Notes: generated from the sequence alone by a model not told the origin. 64,000 bases of DNA from an uncultured Gammaproteobacteria bacterium (GCA_964348825.1 CAYGDX010000002.1:15489-79488); one strand, 5' to 3'; positions 12,291 through 40,848 are shown, counted from the first letter of the stretch. Numbers and translations are program-made.

Positions 12291-15077
12291 ATGACACATC
12301 GTTATTTAACATTTTTTACATCACTTTTAATTATTATTTTAACACTCACCGACACAAAAACTTTAGCGCAAACCACCACACCGTTTTACTATGATCGCTT
12401 TGACACCAATGCTTTCCAATTGGTCGGACAAACCACAACCAGTCGTGATCGCATTCGACTTACGCCCGCCCAAGGTAGTAAAAAAGGTGCTATTTGGGAT
12501 TCAACCAAACAAGTTGTAAGCAAACAATTCACAGTTACTTACAAACTTCAAACTAAATATCAAGATACTAGAACTCGCGGCGCCGATGGTTTGGCTTTTG
12601 TAATTCAAAACGAAAAAATTAATGCCATTGGCTACGATGGCGGTAGTATGGGCATCAACATTACAAATAGTGTGGCTTGGCCTTGGGATACTTACTATAA
12701 TGTTGAATATGGTGATCGTAATCGCTTTCACTTGTGCTTACTTACCCGTGGCACTTTAATCAACAACCCCAACCATACCAACGCAATTTTTACTAGTGGT
12801 AGTTTAGCATCCGCGCCTGATACTAATATTCATTTAATTCGCTTAACCTATAATTACGGCAAAATAAAAATTTATTTTGAAGATACTACGCAGGCGTTGG
12901 GTACGACTTATTTGAATTTAAACACTGAACTAAATTTGGATTCTGGCCGGGCTTGGGTGGGCTTTACTGCCGCCACCGGTGGAATTGGCTGGCAAACTCA
13001 TGATATATTATTTTGGTCGTTTGACACTTTAATCAGGCCTCTTCACGAACCAGTAATCATAATTGGCGGTATTATGACTTCCCCACTTTATGATTCAGAA
13101 GATAGCATACTACTTGCGACTGAAAAAATCTGGGCAGACAAAAATCATTTACTCGTACAGCGTGATGATTTTTTACAAGTACTGGAGCTTGCTTCCGACG
13201 GCATAAATCCAGCCCAAAGTAATTATCAAATTAAATTTCCACCCCTTGCCACTACTCCACAAATTCCCACCTTGCAAAATGAGTTAGCCCGTTTACCATT
13301 ATCAACTTATCAACCCTTAGTTCAAGAACTAACTTTACGTGAAAAATATGTCTTGGATAATGGCGATAGTGATCACGGTGAAATGGAAGATTTATTTATC
13401 TTCACTTATGATTGGCGGAAAAGTGCGCAAGTTAATGCTCAAAGATTAAATTTATTGGTGGATAGCGTAATTAAGTGGACAAATTATAACCAAGTAAAAA
13501 TCGTGGCGCACAGTTTAGGTGGTTTGATTACTAAATCTTATGTGGCAGAGTACGGTAGCGATAAACTATCACGAATTGTATTTACTGGCACACCACATTT
13601 GGGCGCGCCGAAAATGGGTTACGTACTTTTAAGTGGCGACCTGATGGGACTATTGGGGTTCGCTGTAAATCACGAAATGATTAAAAATTTAGCGCGAAAT
13701 TTTCCCAGTGCTTATGAATTATTACCCAGCGCTAATTGGTTTAATTTCAGCGGCAATGGCCAAACTTTGAATTCTAATTTATATGGACAATATTTAATAG
13801 CGTCTCGGCAAACTTTGAGTAATTATCCAGCGACGATGAATTATTTAGTCAGGCGACAATTAAATGATGCCGCGGAATTTAACTCGGCACTAATTAATTC
13901 AGCTATCACTAATCAAAACTCTTGGACCAATGTAAACTTTGGCGCTACGGAAATTTATAATGTAGTAGGTTGTAATTTACCAACACCGGGCAGTATTATT
14001 ATTACTTCAGCAAACACTGTACCAATACTTAATTTAAACGGTGATGGTACGGTACCACTTGGTAGTGCGGAAGGAATTAATGATAATTCACGCGCCACAA
14101 TTTATTTATCTAGTGTAAAACATGATGATTTGTGTGCGAATGAAACTGCTGTAAAAATTATAGCTAAATTATTACGCAAAGTAGCTGACACAGTAACGGC
14201 TGGCTACCCATTGGCAAGTACTGTACCGCCAACTAGTTACGGCATAAATACAACTGCTACGCGAGTTGGTTCGCCAGTACTACTCCACGCTTACGATGCC
14301 GAGAATAACCACACTGGCCCAATTAACGATACAACCTGGGAAGCGCAAATTCCGGGGTCAAGTTTTGTGAGCGGTCCTTTGAACGATCCTGAGGCCAGTA
14401 AAATTATTTTACTACCCGCTGGTCAATCTTATCGCACCACTATTACTAATTTACTTGATACGGTATCTAATTTTGATTTATGGTCGCAAAATAATAGTAG
14501 TAATAACGCACCGCAAATAGCCATCTTTAATAATTTAACTTTAGAGAATGGCTCGTCAGCCGCGCGGAGTGATATAAATGAAACCGCGAGTGATTTGGAA
14601 ATTGATCAAAATGGCGATAATGATTACGAAACGATTATTACACCCATTACCAATTTTTCTAAATTACTTGATTCGGGTTGGAATTTAGTTGCCCTGCCAC
14701 TTAAAACCGGAAATGACAGCTTGCTCTCAATTTTTCCAAGCACTCTGCCTTATGGTTTTAGGTTTAATGGGCAATACATATCGAGTGAACAACTTGATTC
14801 AACTAGTGGTTGGTGGATAAAAATTAAAAATGACAACGCAATTGATTTAATTGGACAAAATTTCGCCTTAGACACAATTAATTTAATTAGTGATTGGAAT
14901 TTAATCGGCATTGGTTCAAAGTCAAAAATCGCTACCGAACTCAACACTCTACCGAACGACTTACTCAACAGCCAGTTCTTTAAATACCAAAATGGTTACT
15001 CACCGACTGACACTTTGTACCCTGGCTTTGGCTACTGGATAAAAGCTAAGCAAGCGGGGCAAATAATCCTGCGTTAA
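12291..15077 (+). CDS. secreted L-type lectin domain / alpha-beta-hydrolase (LCAT/PGAP1-like lipase) fusion protein
   Basis: 928 aa with a signal peptide. N-terminal legume-lectin-like block (RIRLTPAQGSKKGAIW ... ADGLAFVIQ). Central lipase nucleophile-elbow motif VAHSLGGLI followed by FTGTPHLGAP. The C-terminal ~350 aa is unassigned. Confidence 0.65.
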   Translation: MTHRYLTFFTSLLIIILTLTDTKTLAQTTTPFYYDRFDTNAFQLVGQTTTSRDRIRLTPAQGSKKGAIWDSTKQVVSKQFTVTYKLQTKYQDTRTRGADGLAFVIQNEKINAIGYDGGSMGINITNSVAWPWDTYYNVEYGDRNRFHLCLLTRGTLINNPNHTNAIFTSGSLASAPDTNIHLIRLTYNYGKIKIYFEDTTQALGTTYLNLNTELNLDSGRAWVGFTAATGGIGWQTHDILFWSFDTLIRPLHEPVIIIGGIMTSPLYDSEDSILLATEKIWADKNHLLVQRDDFLQVLELASDGINPAQSNYQIKFPPLATTPQIPTLQNELARLPLSTYQPLVQELTLREKYVLDNGDSDHGEMEDLFIFTYDWRKSAQVNAQRLNLLVDSVIKWTNYNQVKIVAHSLGGLITKSYVAEYGSDKLSRIVFTGTPHLGAPKMGYVLLSGDLMGLLGFAVNHEMIKNLARNFPSAYELLPSANWFNFSGNGQTLNSNLYGQYLIASRQTLSNYPATMNYLVRRQLNDAAEFNSALINSAITNQNSWTNVNFGATEIYNVVGCNLPTPGSIIITSANTVPILNLNGDGTVPLGSAEGINDNSRATIYLSSVKHDDLCANETAVKIIAKLLRKVADTVTAGYPLASTVPPTSYGINTTATRVGSPVLLHAYDAENNHTGPINDTTWEAQIPGSSFVSGPLNDPEASKIILLPAGQSYRTTITNLLDTVSNFDLWSQNNSSNNAPQIAIFNNLTLENGSSAARSDINETASDLEIDQNGDNDYETIITPITNFSKLLDSGWNLVALPLKTGNDSLLSIFPSTLPYGFRFNGQYISSEQLDSTSGWWIKIKNDNAIDLIGQNFALDTINLISDWNLIGIGSKSKIATELNTLPNDLLNSQFFKYQNGYSPTDTLYPGFGYWIKAKQAGQIILR

Positions 15078-15097
15078 GTAATAAATAATAACAACGC

Positions 15098-15136
15098 AAA
15101 ACCCGAACAAAATATTTGTTCGGGTTTTTTATTTTT
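15098..15136 (+). terminator. rho-independent terminator
   Basis: AAACCCGAACAAAATATTTGTTCGGGTTT followed by a T-run, immediately after the 12291..15077 CDS. Confidence 0.8.
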
Positions 15137-15217
15137 TAATGATTTGTGACATAGCTGTAAGCTTTTTCGTTTGCTTGCCGCATACACGCTGTTAGGTGAT
15201 GTAAAATTTTGTTTGAA

Positions 15218-15952
15218 TTATTCCATCTTACTTCTCTTCTTTTTCCTATGGTTTGTATTCAAATATTTATCCTCAACGAAATAATTAACAGCATAAATAA
15301 AACAAACTAGTCGCCACCAAAATTTGCTTATTTCTTTATAAGTTAAATTATCTCCAAAGCATATTTGGTGTACGTACTCATGTCTCTTTTCAAATAATGT
15401 TCCTACCTGATTTTTCCAATCTGGCAAATTAACTTTTAAGTGTAATTTTGTAACAGAAAAGAAATTTTTCTCTACCTTATTTAATCTATGTTGATGGTTT
15501 TCAACTTCTTCTAAAAAATTGCATTTCAATAGTTTGGAAAAAAATGAATCAATCGTTGTTAAATTTTCAAAAAGCCGATCAATTCCAATTAATTCGCTAA
15601 TTCTAATCGGCTTTCTTGACTTACGTGTTCTTAAGAGTTGATAAGCTTCCCAGATTGTTATTTTTTCTTCCAACAGTTTTTCTAAACCATCATTATTTTT
15701 AATAATCTTTATGTCAGGAATATTTTTTAGAAGATCTTTGAAATAAACTTCCGCGGCTGTAACTAAATTTATTACGTAATTTTTTCTAGCATTAATTTTT
15801 ATTGTTTTAGTTTTTGATTTTTTTTCGACTAAGTAAACTAGCCCTACAGACTCAGCAACCTTTTTGTAAAAAGTTGTAATTGCCTCAGGGCCTCTCTGTT
15901 TAAAAAAATTTCTTTCCTTTTCGATTTTTTTAAGTGCATCTGATAAATTCAT
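15218..15952 (-). CDS. hypothetical protein with C-terminal Rx4H (HEPN-like) motif; third gene of the candidate defence island
   Basis: 244 aa, AT-rich codon usage. FEKRHEYVHQ fits the HEPN Rx4-6H signature. No other recognisable domain. Confidence 0.4.
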   Translation of the reverse strand: MNLSDALKKIEKERNFFKQRGPEAITTFYKKVAESVGLVYLVEKKSKTKTIKINARKNYVINLVTAAEVYFKDLLKNIPDIKIIKNNDGLEKLLEEKITIWEAYQLLRTRKSRKPIRISELIGIDRLFENLTTIDSFFSKLLKCNFLEEVENHQHRLNKVEKNFFSVTKLHLKVNLPDWKNQVGTLFEKRHEYVHQICFGDNLTYKEISKFWWRLVCFIYAVNYFVEDKYLNTNHRKKKRSKME

Positions 15953-16192
15953 AGTAAAATTTTATGTCACCTAACATCTCGGGATATCTGATGTTTGCCG
16001 TAGCGTAGCGGAGACAAATATGGGTGGAGGCTTTTGTATAAAAGCCGTAACCAGATATGCCGTGTTATATGATGTATGCTTTTCTTTTTGTCTCGCCTCA
16101 GCGAGACCACTTTTCTGTAATGAACAAATTTTATTTTTGTCTTGGCGAAGGGGCAGAGGGGCTGGGGGTGAATGCCCCGAAGCCAAGACTCC

Positions 16193-17677
16193 TTATTTTC
16201 TTTCTAATTGCCACTTGTAAACTCTTTTAAGCTCATAAACAGTTATTTCTTCATTTTCTTCACATTCTCTCCCTAATTGTAATTGGATGTTATTCTTTGT
16301 TTTCCATGGATCCATTGAGCTTTCCAACAAGTCTTTTATTTTTGATTTAAAAATATTCGTTATTTGAACATAATTCTCGTCCGTTTCTTGGTCATCAATT
16401 AATATAACATCCTTGGGCTTCAAAAAGGAGTATTTATCGTTTATTTCATACAATGTATCAAATTGATATTCTTTAAATTTTTTTTTACTTTCTTCGTCCA
16501 AAATTATTTTTTTATCTGTATAGATCTTAGAAAACTTACCTTTCTTGAATGTTTTTGGAAAAATGTTAACTCTCTTATACTCATCTGTTAAATTTATCTC
16601 TTTACCATTTATTTTAAGTATGTTTCTGCAGCCTGAAAAAGGCCCCATATCTCCTAGAAAATCCACATAGAGATGTGGAAAATCACAGTAAGTATCCCCC
16701 TTGTCATCAATTAATGCGATGTCGGAGTATTTTATCAAACAATCAATAGTAAAATGACCTTTGTGTTTTCGTGGCAGAAAGTCCCAAAAATCATCGACGA
16801 GTTCTTTATTATCAGATATTTTTTTTCTCTCATCGTTATTATGCTCTCGTTGCAGATGAATCAAATCTACTTCTTTAGTAAAATCCCATTCTTTTTTTTC
16901 TGTGTCTATGTATGCAAAATATTCATGATTATGACACCATAGGCCTACTGGGTGATGACTAAATGCAACATATTCCTTCCAGCGAGGCTTTGTCTCAAAA
17001 TCTTTGTACTCCCGTTGATATGGATAATTTGTATCTTTAAGATCTCTCACTAAAACTGACTTATAAAATTGATGGCCTTCCCCAACGGTTCTGAATAATT
17101 TATTTTTTATACTTACCGCCGATCTGATTTCTGCTGTTTTGGACTTTCTTTTACTTACCAGTGAAATGCCAAAAAATGTGAAAAGTATCCTGTCATTTTT
17201 TGGTAAATGTAGCATGTCTTCCAGCTCTGCCTTTCCCCATAGATAAAATTCCATTACACCTTTTTCTCTAAGTTCTTTACGGAATATATCATATGATTCT
17301 TTAGAAAAATTAGCAGACGCGGCTAAGATATACCCATATGGCGGATTTTTTGCATCCACATCAGAAAGAATTGATTTTATTTTTTTTGGACCTATTTCTT
17401 TTTCTCTTTTTCCTTGAATCATCCATAAGTTTCCCTCCATAGGATGAATCAGTTCTTCTTCGACATTATTTTCGTTTTCGGAAGTAGAAATTATTTCAGC
17501 TTTTTCATATGCACGAATATCAAACCCACTATCGCTTCCGCTTCTCCCAGTAGCTTCAATATTCTGCCAATCTTTAAAATCATATATTAATTCTCGAATT
17601 AAATCCTCAAAGCGATGGGGGTCTAAATCCTCAAAATGTATGGGGTTGTATGTTCTTGTGATTTTAGCTTTTGCCAT
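16193..17677 (-). CDS. Mrr-type restriction endonuclease (PD-(D/E)xK) N-terminal domain protein with unknown C-terminal domain
   Basis: 494 aa. The N-terminus follows the Mrr_cat profile order: FEDLIRELIYDF ... ATGRSGSDSGFDI ... WMIQGKRE ... YILAASANFSKESYD ... EFYLWGKAELEDML. The C-terminal ~300 aa is unassigned. Confidence 0.6.
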   Translation of the reverse strand: MAKAKITRTYNPIHFEDLDPHRFEDLIRELIYDFKDWQNIEATGRSGSDSGFDIRAYEKAEIISTSENENNVEEELIHPMEGNLWMIQGKREKEIGPKKIKSILSDVDAKNPPYGYILAASANFSKESYDIFRKELREKGVMEFYLWGKAELEDMLHLPKNDRILFTFFGISLVSKRKSKTAEIRSAVSIKNKLFRTVGEGHQFYKSVLVRDLKDTNYPYQREYKDFETKPRWKEYVAFSHHPVGLWCHNHEYFAYIDTEKKEWDFTKEVDLIHLQREHNNDERKKISDNKELVDDFWDFLPRKHKGHFTIDCLIKYSDIALIDDKGDTYCDFPHLYVDFLGDMGPFSGCRNILKINGKEINLTDEYKRVNIFPKTFKKGKFSKIYTDKKIILDEESKKKFKEYQFDTLYEINDKYSFLKPKDVILIDDQETDENYVQITNIFKSKIKDLLESSMDPWKTKNNIQLQLGRECEENEEITVYELKRVYKWQLERK

Positions 17678-17746
17678 ATTTCTTAATTAATTGTGCTTTT
17701 TGGAAAATGTGGAGAGGTGAATGCCCCAAAGTTAAAGCTACTTCTT

Positions 17747-19951
17747 TTATCCTTTAGTGATCTTTTCAAGTTTACACTTCGGACAAGTGTATTTCGAATT
17801 AGTTCTGTCATTTACGCTTGACTGCCACTCATGGGAACAATTTGGGCAATGCCAAGATATTTTAATTCTGGAGCCACAAGTCATTAAATCAGCCGAATAA
17901 CCTTGTTTATCATTTTTTTCTTTGTCCCAATATTTCATTAAAATGGGATATTTTTCTTTTACAGACCCTCGATTTTTTAAGATCGTCTTTTTATAGGTAT
18001 CAGTTGATTTTTTTATACCACATAGCGGGCAACTACTTAAATTTCCTGTGGTTCTGTTTGCAATAGCTGTATTCCAAGAATGACCGCAAGTTTTACAAAT
18101 CCACCAAACTTTAATTTTACTGCCCGAATGAATTGTATAAGGATCAATATCTTTGTTTTTTTGAAAATCCCATTCTTTCATCAATTGCGAATTTTGATTT
18201 GCAATACTTTGACAAAATGGACACGTACCTTCACCTTTGCTTCTACTTTTGATAGTTGCTTCCCATTTGTGTCCTTTTATACATTTCCACCCTACTCGTT
18301 TTGAACTTCCTGGCGGATACTCCGTGGGTTCTTTTTTGTTTACCTCATAATCCCATTCTTTTAATAATTCAGGATGTTTATTTGCGAAAGTTCCAGTCTT
18401 TTTTATTCGTATCCCAGTTGCCCTTTCACTTCTATTGTTATTCATACAAATTGGACAACCATAGCCCTTTCCAGTTCTACTTCCAACAGAAGCTATCCAA
18501 CTATGACCAATTAGACACTTCCAATTAATCTTTAAAGAGCTCCCAGCGGAAATTTTATTAGGACTATATGTGTTCATTTCGTAATCCCATTCTCTTAACA
18601 TTTCTGGATGGCTCTGTGCGAATGAAATTCCCTTTTTTGTCAGCAATGATTTTCTCAAATTATTTCCTGCGTTGTCTCTATAGCAAATAGGGCAACCGGA
18701 GTTTCTTTTATGTCTATTTTTTATTGATGCCTCCCAAATATGTCCAAGTTTACATTTCCAATAAACTTTTTTCTCTGAATTTGCAGTAAACATATCCGGA
18801 GTCAGTGGATTGTTTTTTGCAAAATCCCACTCTTTAGCTAGTTCAGGATTAATAAATAGTAAACTTTCTTTCTCTGTTGGTGCTGGTAATAAAGATAAGG
18901 TTTTTTTGAATTCATTTTCTCCTATTTGAATTCTATCTAAAATATATTTATCAAATTTAAGTTTTGGATTAATTTTAGAAATAATTTTTAATACACCGAT
19001 CACTAAGTCAATATATTGAGTTTTTTTATCGTAGAGAACAACATCACCATCTATTTTGGGTAACAAAGAATCTCTAACTCTAATTAGATAAATATTGTTG
19101 TCCTTAAAAATTTTATGTTTTATTAAATCTCTTTCAAGTTTATTGTCGTGCCAATATGCACCATCGATTTCAATCCCAAAACCGTCATTTTTTAAAAGGA
19201 TGTCACATTCGTACCCTTCAATTTTTGACCTCCATTTAACATTTTTGAAAAGTTTACTCATTTCGCAAAGAATAAACACCTCTAATTTTGATGTTGAAGA
19301 TTTACAAAAAGGACAACCGCTATTATTTCCAGTTCTGTTATATATTTGGGCTTCCCATGTATGCCCAAATTTACATTTCCAAAAAGCATTTAAATTACTA
19401 TTAGGTGAAATATCATTGGGGTCTATTTTATTTTTAGCATAATCCCACTCAGTTAATAATTCTGGATGTTTTTTAAATAGAATTACTCCTGTTTTTTCTA
19501 ATCTAGCCTTCCTTATTCTTGCACCCTGATTTGTCCTAGAACATATAGGGCAACCATCGCCTCTAGATCTTCTTTGTGGGGTAGATTGCCACTCATGATC
19601 TTCTTTACATTTAAACCAAAAAAGTAAATGACTTTTCTCCGAGACACTTTCTGGTCTTAGATTGTTTTTAAAATAATTCCATTCAGATAATAGTTCTGGT
19701 TTTGCTTGAGCAAAAGAGAGTCCTTTCTTTAACTTACTTTTTCTTATATTTTCATTTTTTATTGGACTGTTGCATATTTTGCATCCATTACTTCTAATTC
19801 GACTAAAAAACGATACATGGTACGTATGTTCCTTTTTACATTTCCACCAAATCTTCTTTGTGCTTGTTTTGGATAGAATAGAAGGGTTAATACCAATATT
19901 TTTTGAATGGTCAAAGTCCTTTAAAATTTTTGAAAAATCTTGTTTTTCCAT
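17747..19951 (-). CDS. multi-zinc-ribbon (DUF4379-like W-C-GH-W-GCP-C repeats) protein with central DUF559/Vsr-like endonuclease domain
   Basis: 734 aa. About 10 repeats of the pattern (H)PEL..EWDY.KN ... W.C..GH.W ... GCP.C. A central block, YECDILLKNDGFGIEIDGAYWHDN ... RD ... IRVRD, matches the DUF559/very-short-patch-repair PD-(D/E)xK fold. Confidence 0.6.
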   Translation of the reverse strand: MEKQDFSKILKDFDHSKNIGINPSILSKTSTKKIWWKCKKEHTYHVSFFSRIRSNGCKICNSPIKNENIRKSKLKKGLSFAQAKPELLSEWNYFKNNLRPESVSEKSHLLFWFKCKEDHEWQSTPQRRSRGDGCPICSRTNQGARIRKARLEKTGVILFKKHPELLTEWDYAKNKIDPNDISPNSNLNAFWKCKFGHTWEAQIYNRTGNNSGCPFCKSSTSKLEVFILCEMSKLFKNVKWRSKIEGYECDILLKNDGFGIEIDGAYWHDNKLERDLIKHKIFKDNNIYLIRVRDSLLPKIDGDVVLYDKKTQYIDLVIGVLKIISKINPKLKFDKYILDRIQIGENEFKKTLSLLPAPTEKESLLFINPELAKEWDFAKNNPLTPDMFTANSEKKVYWKCKLGHIWEASIKNRHKRNSGCPICYRDNAGNNLRKSLLTKKGISFAQSHPEMLREWDYEMNTYSPNKISAGSSLKINWKCLIGHSWIASVGSRTGKGYGCPICMNNNRSERATGIRIKKTGTFANKHPELLKEWDYEVNKKEPTEYPPGSSKRVGWKCIKGHKWEATIKSRSKGEGTCPFCQSIANQNSQLMKEWDFQKNKDIDPYTIHSGSKIKVWWICKTCGHSWNTAIANRTTGNLSSCPLCGIKKSTDTYKKTILKNRGSVKEKYPILMKYWDKEKNDKQGYSADLMTCGSRIKISWHCPNCSHEWQSSVNDRTNSKYTCPKCKLEKITKG

Positions 19952-20210
19952 GTTTTTACTTTAAATAAATCGTTTTCGTAGTGGAGCGGAGAAAACACCT
20001 TATACCCCTCTTTAATTAATGAAAAAGAAATTTGAAGATTTTTTAAAATAATCGAGCGATAGCCCAGAAAAGGAATATTCCAGCTAACTCGTTTGTATGC
20101 GAGTAGATTAATGTTTAATGTTATTAAATTATATATTATGCGAATATAAAGTATTGTAAATATAATTTAATTGACTTTAATATAGCATATTTAAGTAAAA
20201 AAAATAACTA

Positions 20211-40286: not shown

Positions 40287-40360
40287 TGGCAGGGGGTGAA
40301 GGAATCGAACCCACGCTAGAGGTTTTGGAGACCCCTGTACTACCATTATACTAACCCCCC
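40287..40360 (-). tRNA. tRNA-Trp (anticodon CCA), CCA encoded
   Basis: Hand-folded. Acceptor GGGGGGT/ACCCCCT, anticodon stem GGGGT/ACCTC with loop CTCCAAA, T-loop TTCGATT. The T-stem has one mismatch. Confidence 0.7.
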
Positions 40361-40374
40361 ATAAGTAGGCGCAC

Positions 40375-40530
40375 CTACTTCGTTTCTTTATGCATCGCGT
40401 GCTTCTTGCACCATTCACAATGTTTTTTCAATTCCAAACGTGTTTTCACTTTCTTCTTATTACGGAAGGTGTGATAATTGATGCGGTGACAAGCACTGCA
40501 TTCCATTTTTATAAGATTATCTTGAGACAT
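40375..40530 (-). CDS. rpmG: 50S ribosomal protein L33
   Basis: 51 aa, below the ORF-track cutoff. MSQDNLIKMECSACHRINYHTFRNKKKVKTRLELKKHCEWCKKHAMHKETK has the C4 zinc ribbon and typical L33 spacing. Confidence 0.85.
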   Translation of the reverse strand: MSQDNLIKMECSACHRINYHTFRNKKKVKTRLELKKHCEWCKKHAMHKETK

Positions 40531-40584
40531 AATATTAGAAATAATAAATAATAAAAATCATTATTACAAGCTTCGGTTTTTACA

Positions 40585-40660
40585 TGGAGCCGATGGTCGG
40601 GTTCGAACCGACGACCTACGGTTTACAAAACCGTTGCTCTACCAGCTGAGCTACATCGGC
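40585..40660 (-). tRNA. tRNA-Thr (anticodon UGU)
   Basis: GCCGATGTAGCTCAGCTGGTAGAGCAACGGTTTTGTAAACCGT ... GGTTCGAACCCGACCATCGGCTCCA, cloverleaf folded by hand. Confidence 0.85.
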
Positions 40661-40661
40661 G

Positions 40662-40749
40662 TGGTGGGTGGGATAGGATTCGAACCTATGAAGCCACGAG
40701 GGCAACTGGTTTACAGCCAGTCACGTTTGACCACTTCGTTACCCACCCC
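40662..40749 (-). tRNA. tRNA-Tyr (anticodon GUA), long variable arm
   Basis: GGGGTGGGTAACGAAGTGGTCAAACGTGACTGGCTGTAAACCAGTT ... GGTTCGAATCCTATCCCACCCACCA. Confidence 0.8.
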
Positions 40750-40775
40750 TACAAAAACATAATTTCTCCACCCTG

Positions 40776-40848
40776 AGCCGTTGATCGGAATTGAACCGAT
40801 GACCTACTCCTTACCATGGAGTTGCTCTACCAGCTGAGCTACAACGGC
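40776..40848 (-). tRNA. tRNA-Thr (anticodon GGU)
   Basis: GCCGTTGTAGCTCAGCTGGTAGAGCAACTCCATGGTAAGGAGT ... GGTTCAATTCCGATCAACGGCT. Confidence 0.8.

Follow-up and report, generated by a model that had tools for sequence, protein, structure and literature searches.

An Mrr-type nuclease joined to an orphan domain and an ASCH-like domain: a candidate single-chain modification-dependent nuclease family

What does an Mrr-type nuclease do when its catalytic domain stands first and is followed by some 300 residues in which an earlier note on this DNA, made from the sequence alone, recognised no motif? The question is raised by a gene on the minus strand of a 64,000-nucleotide stretch from an uncultured Gammaproteobacteria bacterium (GCA_964348825.1, CAYGDX010000002.1:15489-79488; the whole stretch is called the window below, and positions are counted from its first letter). 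The open reading frame (ORF) that the note had placed at 16193-17677 is borne out: it lies on the minus strand, starts with ATG and encodes 494 residues. We lean, with modest assurance, towards the view that its product is a Type IV-like restriction or defence nuclease, dependent on modification, that works on its own as a single chain and is horizontally spread. Among the layers of anti-phage defence, modification-dependent nucleases are a major one, and they have yielded reagents for modification mapping (MspJI, AbaSI, the END nucleases). The family described here, with more than 1,200 metagenome sequence clusters and many Patescibacteria among its species, was previously unstudied, and it joins the best-known Type IV nuclease core to a module whose putatively essential part, called C1 here, matches no solved structure.

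The gene is real and not a chance ORF, because many proteins match it: among 5.8 billion proteins searched, 1267 are relatives at E<=1e-3, and the top 120 of them are full-length (~495 aa) with 52-87% identity. Those that carry a name are labelled just “restriction endonuclease” or “hypothetical protein”, and the sources of the closest ones are Patescibacteria, Deltaproteobacteria, Nitrospirota, a metagenome-assembled genome (MAG) of Promethearchaeota, and Caenimonas. Long-form homologs are present in Caenimonas sedimenti, Pedobacter and Mucilaginibacter. The full-length AlphaFold2 (AF2) model has a mean predicted local distance difference test score (pLDDT) of 79.9, and PDB sequences searched with the full-length single sequence and with the full-length profile gave no match. 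Among diverse relatives the mean pairwise identity falls from 57% in the N-domain to 31% in C1 and 21% in the last domain, C2, a gradient from effector to C-terminus such as one would expect if the effector is conserved and the sensor evolves fast.

The N-terminal nuclease domain

The proposal of an N-terminal Mrr_cat domain holds. All of the sequence blocks quoted for it (RFEDLIRELIYDF, ATGRSGSDSGFDIRAY, WMIQGKREKE, YGYILAASANFSKESYDIF and YLWGKAELEDMLHL) are present in the order given, and the Pfam model Mrr_cat (PF04471) matches residues 17-134 above its gathering cut-off (25.0 bits against 21, E 2.1e-5). Conservation was judged on 43 deliberately diverse relatives (alignment A3), which are otherwise about 40-50% identical; 40 of these match the Mrr_cat model individually (best E 9.1e-7), and D53, Q88 and K90 are invariant in all 43, together with E24, R28, D49 and E58. 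In the AF2 model, helix 20-34, strands 37-42, 52-58 and 83-90, helix 97-104 and strand 115-120 make up a nuclease core in the order alpha-beta-beta-beta-alpha-beta, the canonical PD-(D/E)xK arrangement, with D53 at the start of strand 52-58 and both Q88 and K90 on strand 83-90.

The PD-QxK form of the motif is the signature of Mrr-like and MspJI nucleases (PMC6765204, PMC12707154), and EcoKMrr shares its nuclease family with the window protein: PxRFE, GxxGxDxGxD, QxKR and hhhh(S/T)xF(S/T) are corresponding blocks of the two. Read by eye from the sequences, SDSGFD53 is the counterpart of GDGGID203 in EcoKMrr, D203A being the catalytic-loop mutant of Mrr (PMC5435990); IQ88GK90R aligns with VQ219AK221R, and YILAASANFSK with VFITTSGFTSQ. 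The match of the N-domain profile to EcoKMrr is weak (hhalign E 0.006, probability 6%). A Foldseek search of the full-length model against the PDB has MspJI, the nuclease subunit of the short prokaryotic Argonaute (pAgo) system SPARDA, and EcoT38I among its best matches, at modest E-values of 8.5e-3 to 0.14, the MspJI chains lying between 8.5e-3 and 2.9e-2. By these sequence and model comparisons, the N-terminal domain is an Mrr_cat-type PD-(D/E)xK nuclease whose predicted catalytic motif is intact and invariant. The PADLOC candidate profile PDC-M58A also matches this nuclease domain (aa 14-158, E 8.3e-6).

Two features of the domain are out of the ordinary: the very high conservation of aa 12-59 (mean pairwise identity 73%) and a variable acidic insert. 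The insert that separates the D53 strand from the QxK strand is 13-30 residues long in the family, consists of Asp and Glu to 33%, has a mean pairwise identity of 14%, and is modelled with pLDDT <50 at aa 63-76. The linker to C1 begins in a basic K/R-R-R-S-R/K stretch after the conserved PKNDRILFTFFGIS block (aa ~159-172, still inside the N-domain); pLDDT is low at aa 165-179, and the linker helix (aa 180-198) carries the invariant N192.

The two C-terminal domains

No above-threshold match to aa ~195-494 of the window protein was obtained in the domain and profile libraries scanned. An AF2 model of these residues is nevertheless confident (pLDDT 91.3, predicted template modelling score 0.86), and the C-terminal region is two domains, C1 (aa ~200-380) followed by C2 (aa ~383-494). 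The novel C-domain of about 300 residues that the earlier note had suggested therefore stands in part: it is not one domain, and the fold of C2 is well known, but C1 is an orphan and C2 is without the ASCH catalytic motif.

C1 is mainly beta in the AF2 model, with a single long helix. Its invariant residues are R211, P219, W233, D324, G327, D328, P334, H335 and F373, and Y218, F227, P231, G245 and D265 are near-invariant; the signature formed by the residues from D324 to H335 was checked on 30 sequences in which long and short forms of the protein were taken together. When 30 members were compared with Pfam, no family recurred for C1 even at E<=10, and the C1 profile found just coiled-coil noise among PDB sequences. 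The His and Cys positions of the C-terminal region, which had looked conserved in the single sequence, are for the most part not so: there is no conserved Cys column, H335 is the sole invariant His, and H242 is kept in 30 of the 43 diverse relatives, so that a zinc-binding or other Cys/His metal-finger domain was rejected. Two further candidates were also rejected, namely an internal duplication (C1/C2, N/C1 or N/C2; hhalign probabilities <=0.3%) and a second PD-(D/E)xK domain in C1 built on D...D-x-K326; since position 326 is variable in the family (K/E/S/H/V/R), K326 is not the lysine of a (D/E)xK motif, and a long helix lies between the strands.

The association of C1 with the nuclease is close. 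When 1.84 billion representatives were scanned exhaustively with HMMER, 334 clusters matched aa 195-494, and among the best 150 of these matches nearly all complete ones share the conserved N-terminus of ~200 residues. The exception, P0203, is a metagenomic protein of 420 residues, N-terminally incomplete, in which the last two-thirds of C1 come after an unrelated N-terminal region of ~220 residues without a match in a Pfam scan; either a different fusion or an artefact of assembly or frameshift could account for it. There is also a short subfamily (374-416 aa, around 390), encoded by intact ORFs in genomes and in one case on the Agrobacterium plasmid pDG3-1b (WP_217005072.1), in which C1 is present and the protein ends ahead of C2. 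As the C1 motif is invariant and C1 is kept in the short form without C2, it is probable that the nuclease cannot do without C1 as its partner and that C2 is an accessory that contributes specificity. Judged from the alignments, then, it is C1 that defines the family, the core being Mrr_cat plus C1 and C2 an accessory. Four loci (L077, L078, L086 and L092; match at ~8001 in each) have an intact N-domain and have lost the C-terminal part; they were considered as alternative architectures consisting of the N-domain alone and rejected as such, being truncated or frameshifted pseudogenes, and the family gene is thus pseudogenised in several lineages.

The invariant Asp/His cluster of C1 (D324, D328 and H335, plus D265) could be a ligand or metal site, and it is here that a ligand-activated abortive-infection nuclease has to be weighed, in which C1/C2 would bind a small molecule or a free modified nucleotide instead of a base in a duplex, ligand binding would lead to oligomerisation, and the Mrr-type domain would degrade DNA (or DNA and RNA) indiscriminately. 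The N-domain resembles the Mrr-subfamily nuclease of SPARDA, the PDB entries matched by Foldseek including the activated XauSPARDA filament with double-stranded DNA, and its strong conservation could reflect oligomer interfaces; a PUA defence module (PUA-Cal-HAD) is reported to sense free m6-dAMP and to form filaments (PMC12871103). If true, this would be a compact one-gene abortive-infection system. We nevertheless regard it as unlikely: the pocket residues of the ASCH-like domain are poorly conserved, a fold that binds nucleotides, such as SAVED, CARF or TIR, was not detected, and no conserved signal-generating partner gene lies nearby.

C2 has the element order E-H-E-E-E-H-H-E in the AF2 model of aa 195-494 (E, strand; H, helix). 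Its profile aligns end to end with YqfB of the K-12 genome over 98 columns (hhalign probability 86%, E 5.5e-6), the C1 profile, run as a control, reaching 0.7%, and YqfB is also its best PDB match (E 0.029). The Pfam ASCH model (PF04266) is weakly matched by one or two of the ~41 members (E 0.001-0.02), and the matches in BFVD are ASCH and DUF3850 proteins of ~100 aa. The amidohydrolase activity of ASCH proteins requires K21, T24 and R26 of YqfB, in the GxK(T/E)xR octapeptide, and the general acid E74 (bioRxiv 10.64898/2026.02.27.708502). In the hhalign alignment the window protein has F, Y and I at the positions of K21, T24 and R26, which vary across the family, and E74 falls in a variable, gapped stretch. 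Because the ASCH catalytic residues are replaced, C2 is an ASCH-like fold whose enzyme site is lost, which is the usual state for a reader or binding module; an active amidohydrolase of the type acting on N4-acetylcytidine (ac4C) was rejected for C2, the equivalents of K21, T24, R26 and E74 being missing. In comparison with ASCH domain proteins (the ac4C amidohydrolase YqfB, the L. crispatus ASCH protein 3s9x, TRIP4/EOLA1), C2 is without the catalytic octapeptide and E74, and it is fused to a nuclease and not free-standing.

The kinship with ASCH also brings in RNA as a substrate. In an RNA-directed nuclease or toxin, the ASCH-like domain would bind (modified) RNA, for example tRNA, and the PD-(D/E)xK domain would cut RNA, the protein serving as a toxin or abortive-infection effector. 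The known activities of ASCH proteins are directed at RNA or nucleosides (for YqfB and others, at ac4C in tRNA), ZmASCH is reported to be a ribonuclease on single-stranded RNA, and the gene downstream in the window is HEPN-like, that is, of RNase type, with an Rx4H motif. That neighbour, however, is not conserved with the family, C2 has lost the catalytic, RNA-acting motif of ASCH, and the characterised Mrr_cat/PD-QxK enzymes Mrr and MspJI are DNA endonucleases, so a role of this kind seems to us quite improbable.

Table 1. Coordinates in the window of the gene, its domains and motifs, and its 3' flank.
Feature	Position	Strand	Basis
Whole gene, 494 aa (Mrr_cat nuclease, linker, orphan C1, ASCH-like C2)	16193..17677	-	ORF list, homologs, AF2
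N-terminal Mrr_cat PD-QxK nuclease domain, aa ~12-175	17153..17644	-	Pfam PF04471, relatives, AF2, Foldseek
D53, predicted catalytic Asp (GFD motif)	17519..17521	-	invariant in 43 relatives; equivalent of EcoKMrr D203
Variable acidic insert, aa 60-78, between D53 strand and QxK strand	17444..17500	-	pLDDT, alignment
Q88-G-K90, QxK half of PD-QxK	17408..17416	-	Q88 and K90 invariant; EcoKMrr correspondence
Linker, aa 176-199	17081..17152	-	alignments A1 and A3, AF2
C1, orphan mostly-beta domain, aa ~200-380, in long and short forms	16538..17080	-	
C1 signature D324-x-x-G327-D328-x5-P334-H335, on a beta-hairpin	16673..16708	-	invariant in 30 long/short and 43 A3 sequences
C2, ASCH/PUA-like beta-barrel, aa ~383-494, without ASCH catalytic motif, missing from ~390-aa subfamily	16196..16531	-	
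3' flank, structured, GC-rich, ~215 nt	15979..16192	-	identity to L001 (a Patescibacteria locus), minimum free energy

Relation to known nucleases, spread and likely function

PUA-superfamily domains (SRA, EVE, YTH, ASCH) joined to a nuclease are the standard architecture of restriction endonucleases that depend on modification (MDREs), and they are the commonest readers (PMC6765204, PMC12191111). In design, the MspJI family comes closest among characterised enzymes: MspJI, too, is a single chain in which an Mrr-like PD-QxK nuclease is combined with a domain of the PUA superfamily and which has no methyltransferase partner, its SRA-like domain being N-terminal and its nuclease C-terminal (PMC12707154). 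In the window protein the order is reversed, with the nuclease at the N-terminus; the PUA-type domain is ASCH-like and not SRA-like; the orphan C1 of ~180 residues is added in between, and it is C1, not the PUA-like domain, that is the invariant partner; and there is no sequence similarity beyond the nuclease core. EcoKMrr likewise has its DNA-binding domain, the winged-helix Mrr_N, N-terminally and its nuclease C-terminally (Mrr_cat blocks at aa ~166-290 of 304), whereas the window protein is without an Mrr_N match, has its nuclease at aa 12-175 of 494, and ends in C1 and the ASCH-like domain.

The earlier note was thus right that nuclease-first reverses the order of both EcoKMrr and MspJI, and its description of a “different architecture” is sound to that extent; it does not extend further, since an N-terminal nuclease followed by a C-terminal sensor has already been described for the END nucleases and a PUA-nuclease fusion is standard. 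PUA-HNH and EVE-HNH MDREs (VcaM4I, TagI) and the END nucleases differ in their parts: their nuclease is HNH or of phospholipase D (PLD) type in place of PD-QxK, their sensor is EVE/SRA or an inactivated EndoIII (iEndoIII) in place of C1 and the ASCH-like domain, and no sequence homology to them is detectable. As PUA-nuclease fusions and the nuclease-first order are both known, the protein is a new combination in a known paradigm and brings no new principle. What is new here is the order reversed with respect to Mrr and MspJI, the degenerate ASCH-like reader, and the orphan domain that defines the family.

In a scan of one genome per species, 153 of the 185,579 species had relatives, and more than 12 phyla are represented: Patescibacteria (several classes), Syntrophales, Thermodesulfovibrionales, Atribacterota, Bdellovibrionales, Actinomycetota, Burkholderiales and Ignavibacteria, as well as Bacteroidota, Cyanobacteria, Verrucomicrobia, Planctomycetes, Acidobacteriota, Alphaproteobacteria and Chloroflexi. 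The genes neighbouring the homologs, which the earlier note had pointed to as worth following, include no obligate partner: no conserved operon partner was found at 7 annotated and 81 clustered loci, and the small downstream ORFs seen in several loci bear no relationship to one another. Large serine recombinases are the commonest recurrent neighbours among the 81 loci (13), followed by a His-kinase-like cluster (8), C5 DNA methyltransferases (6, within 8 kb) and Vsr (5). The surroundings of the 7 annotated loci are variable and comprise an integrase, serine recombinases, TraG/TrwB, other restriction genes, genes of the cyclic-oligonucleotide-based anti-phage signalling system (CBASS), a LexA-peptidase-DNA-methylase fusion, SNF2 and radical-SAM genes. 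Plasmids contribute three records, one with a short-form gene (77% of the query) and two with the N-domain region alone (35% and 30%). A phage origin was rejected, tblastn giving 0 matches in 50,697 phage records and PHROG none. The family is sporadic and horizontally spread, has no obligate neighbour, and occurs in mobile and defence contexts.

One locus of a Deltaproteobacteria MAG (HGW-13; L003/L004, 8989-10497) has the family gene, a 155-aa ORF and then a CBASS pair (CD-NTase and a Cap15-like effector), with an HTH_3/Peptidase_M78 gene preceding the family gene and serine recombinases on either side; the arrangement resembles a compact island of defence genes carried by a mobile element.

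The frequent carriage by elements that also bear conjugation genes or serine recombinases, the database label “restriction endonuclease” and the movement of the gene with a conserved 3' flank (see below) would all suit a nuclease that serves a mobile element (maintenance, addiction or homing), Type II-like or non-specific, whose C-domains bind a sequence and not a modification. This we consider very unlikely. For such an enzyme the host would need protection, and 75 of the 81 loci are without a C5 methyltransferase neighbour and have no other recurrent neighbour able to provide it; insertion of the homing type into a conserved host gene was not seen, and PUA-like domains are atypical as sequence-specific DNA binders.

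The Type IV-like reading, to which we return, draws on the PD-QxK effector joined to a PUA-fold domain, the lack of a methyltransferase (none flanks the gene in the window), the sporadic occurrence across phyla in the company of mobile and defence genes, and the gene copies that have decayed. In the mechanism we propose, the C-terminal module, with C1 packed on C2, would bind nucleic acid and recognise a modified, non-canonical base, which would probably be flipped into a pocket, like the bases bound by other readers of the PUA superfamily; the Mrr-type PD-QxK domain (D53, Q88 and K90, with E24 of helix 1) would then cut the DNA close by. Like Mrr and MspJI, the enzyme would probably act as a dimer or higher oligomer, and a methyltransferase partner would not be required. 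We infer that DNA is the substrate, that cutting depends on modification, that C1 or C2 is the sensor, that the protein forms oligomers and that it acts against phages.

Several points weigh against such an enzyme. C2 is the least conserved part of the protein, with E482 alone near-invariant, and it is dispensable in the short subfamily, so that the ASCH-like domain may not be the primary sensor; characterised ASCH proteins, moreover, act mainly on RNA or nucleosides. C1 is without a recognisable fold, and we infer a sensor role for it purely. The conservation of the N-domain (mean pairwise identity of 73% over aa 12-59) is unusually strong for a defence nuclease. The C5 methyltransferases at 6 of the 81 loci would be awkward for an enzyme dependent on 5-methylcytosine, and may belong to separate restriction-modification systems. 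The PADLOC profile PDC-M58A, with its 154 positions, covers the nuclease domain alone and leaves C1 and C2 outside. A literature search found no biochemical or genetic work on any family member, and no paper either on the combination of Mrr_cat with an ASCH-like domain or on PDC-M58.

A bolder version, which we put forward tentatively and hold to be somewhat doubtful, is that C1 has an undescribed fold that senses a modified base or another nucleic-acid feature and, with the Mrr-type nuclease, makes up a new and widespread single-chain modification-dependent family. Its specificity would then lie beyond that of the SRA, EVE, YTH, winged-helix (wH), DUF3427 and iEndoIII readers, with the degenerate C2 tuning it; if true, C1 would add to the catalogue of modification sensors and may recognise modifications for which there is no tool enzyme. 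The catalytic motif and the invariant C1 residues are immediate targets for mutation.

The 3' flank and the gene's surroundings

DNA homology to the closest relatives begins exactly at the ATG and stops ~215 nt past the stop codon, so that what is transferred is the gene together with its 3' flank and nothing else. The flank is 98% identical to positions 8486-8698 of L001, which comes from a Patescibacteria genome, 100-nt windows of the coding sequence being 74-94% identical; it folds with a minimum free energy of -67.7 kcal/mol and matches no family in Rfam. Directly after the stop codon stands a hairpin (TCTTGGC...GCCAAGA), which is retained in locus L013, and then a second, GGTCTCGC-TGAG-GCGAGACC. 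The flank travels with the gene and may be part of the functional unit.

The middle of the flank (~16064-16138, with the GGTCTCGC/GCGAGACC hairpin in it) is found again, inverted, at 4837-4908 of L001 (80% identity) and at 6616-6683 of L018 (72% identity), in the latter just upstream of the family gene. These inverted recurrences suggest a small repeated hairpin element like a repetitive extragenic palindrome (REP) or a miniature inverted-repeat transposable element (MITE). On the plus strand, the middle of the flank also has a site resembling an intrinsic terminator (16090-16107).

In the window, the gene lies within a stretch (15001-20000) of GC content 0.30-0.34 and negative AT skew, the adjoining 5 kb having about 0.36-0.43, and two co-directional nuclease-type genes flank it there. 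This composition is consistent with a horizontally acquired three-gene islet. No tRNA and no direct repeats were found at the edges of the stretch. Homologs of the two neighbours were not found near other members of the family.

The upstream neighbour (17747-19951, minus strand) encodes 734 residues with eight DUF4379 treble-clef zinc-finger repeats (E 1.3e-132), a Vsr/MTES_1575-like nuclease core at aa ~237-294, and a match to PHROG 559, “HNH endonuclease” (5.7e-49). The downstream neighbour (15218-15952, minus strand) encodes 244 residues with a sub-threshold match to HEPN_RiboL-PSP (23.6 bits against a cut-off of 28.4) and the Rx4H motif KRHEYVH, and is a possible HEPN RNase. An imperfect inverted repeat of ~20 bp brackets this downstream gene (15956-15976 and 15190-15210; 19 of 21 bases, blastn-short E ~0.1-0.2) and may be due to chance. 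Beyond it, a hairpin with a perfect 14-bp stem and T-runs on both sides (15098-15128) resembles a bidirectional terminator and closes the three-gene set; it sits between the three minus-strand genes and a convergent gene for a 928-aa protein (12291-15077, plus strand). An Rfam scan of the window returned tRNAs only, and four tRNA genes (Trp, Thr, Tyr, Thr), unrelated to the family gene, lie at 40287-40848 on the minus strand.

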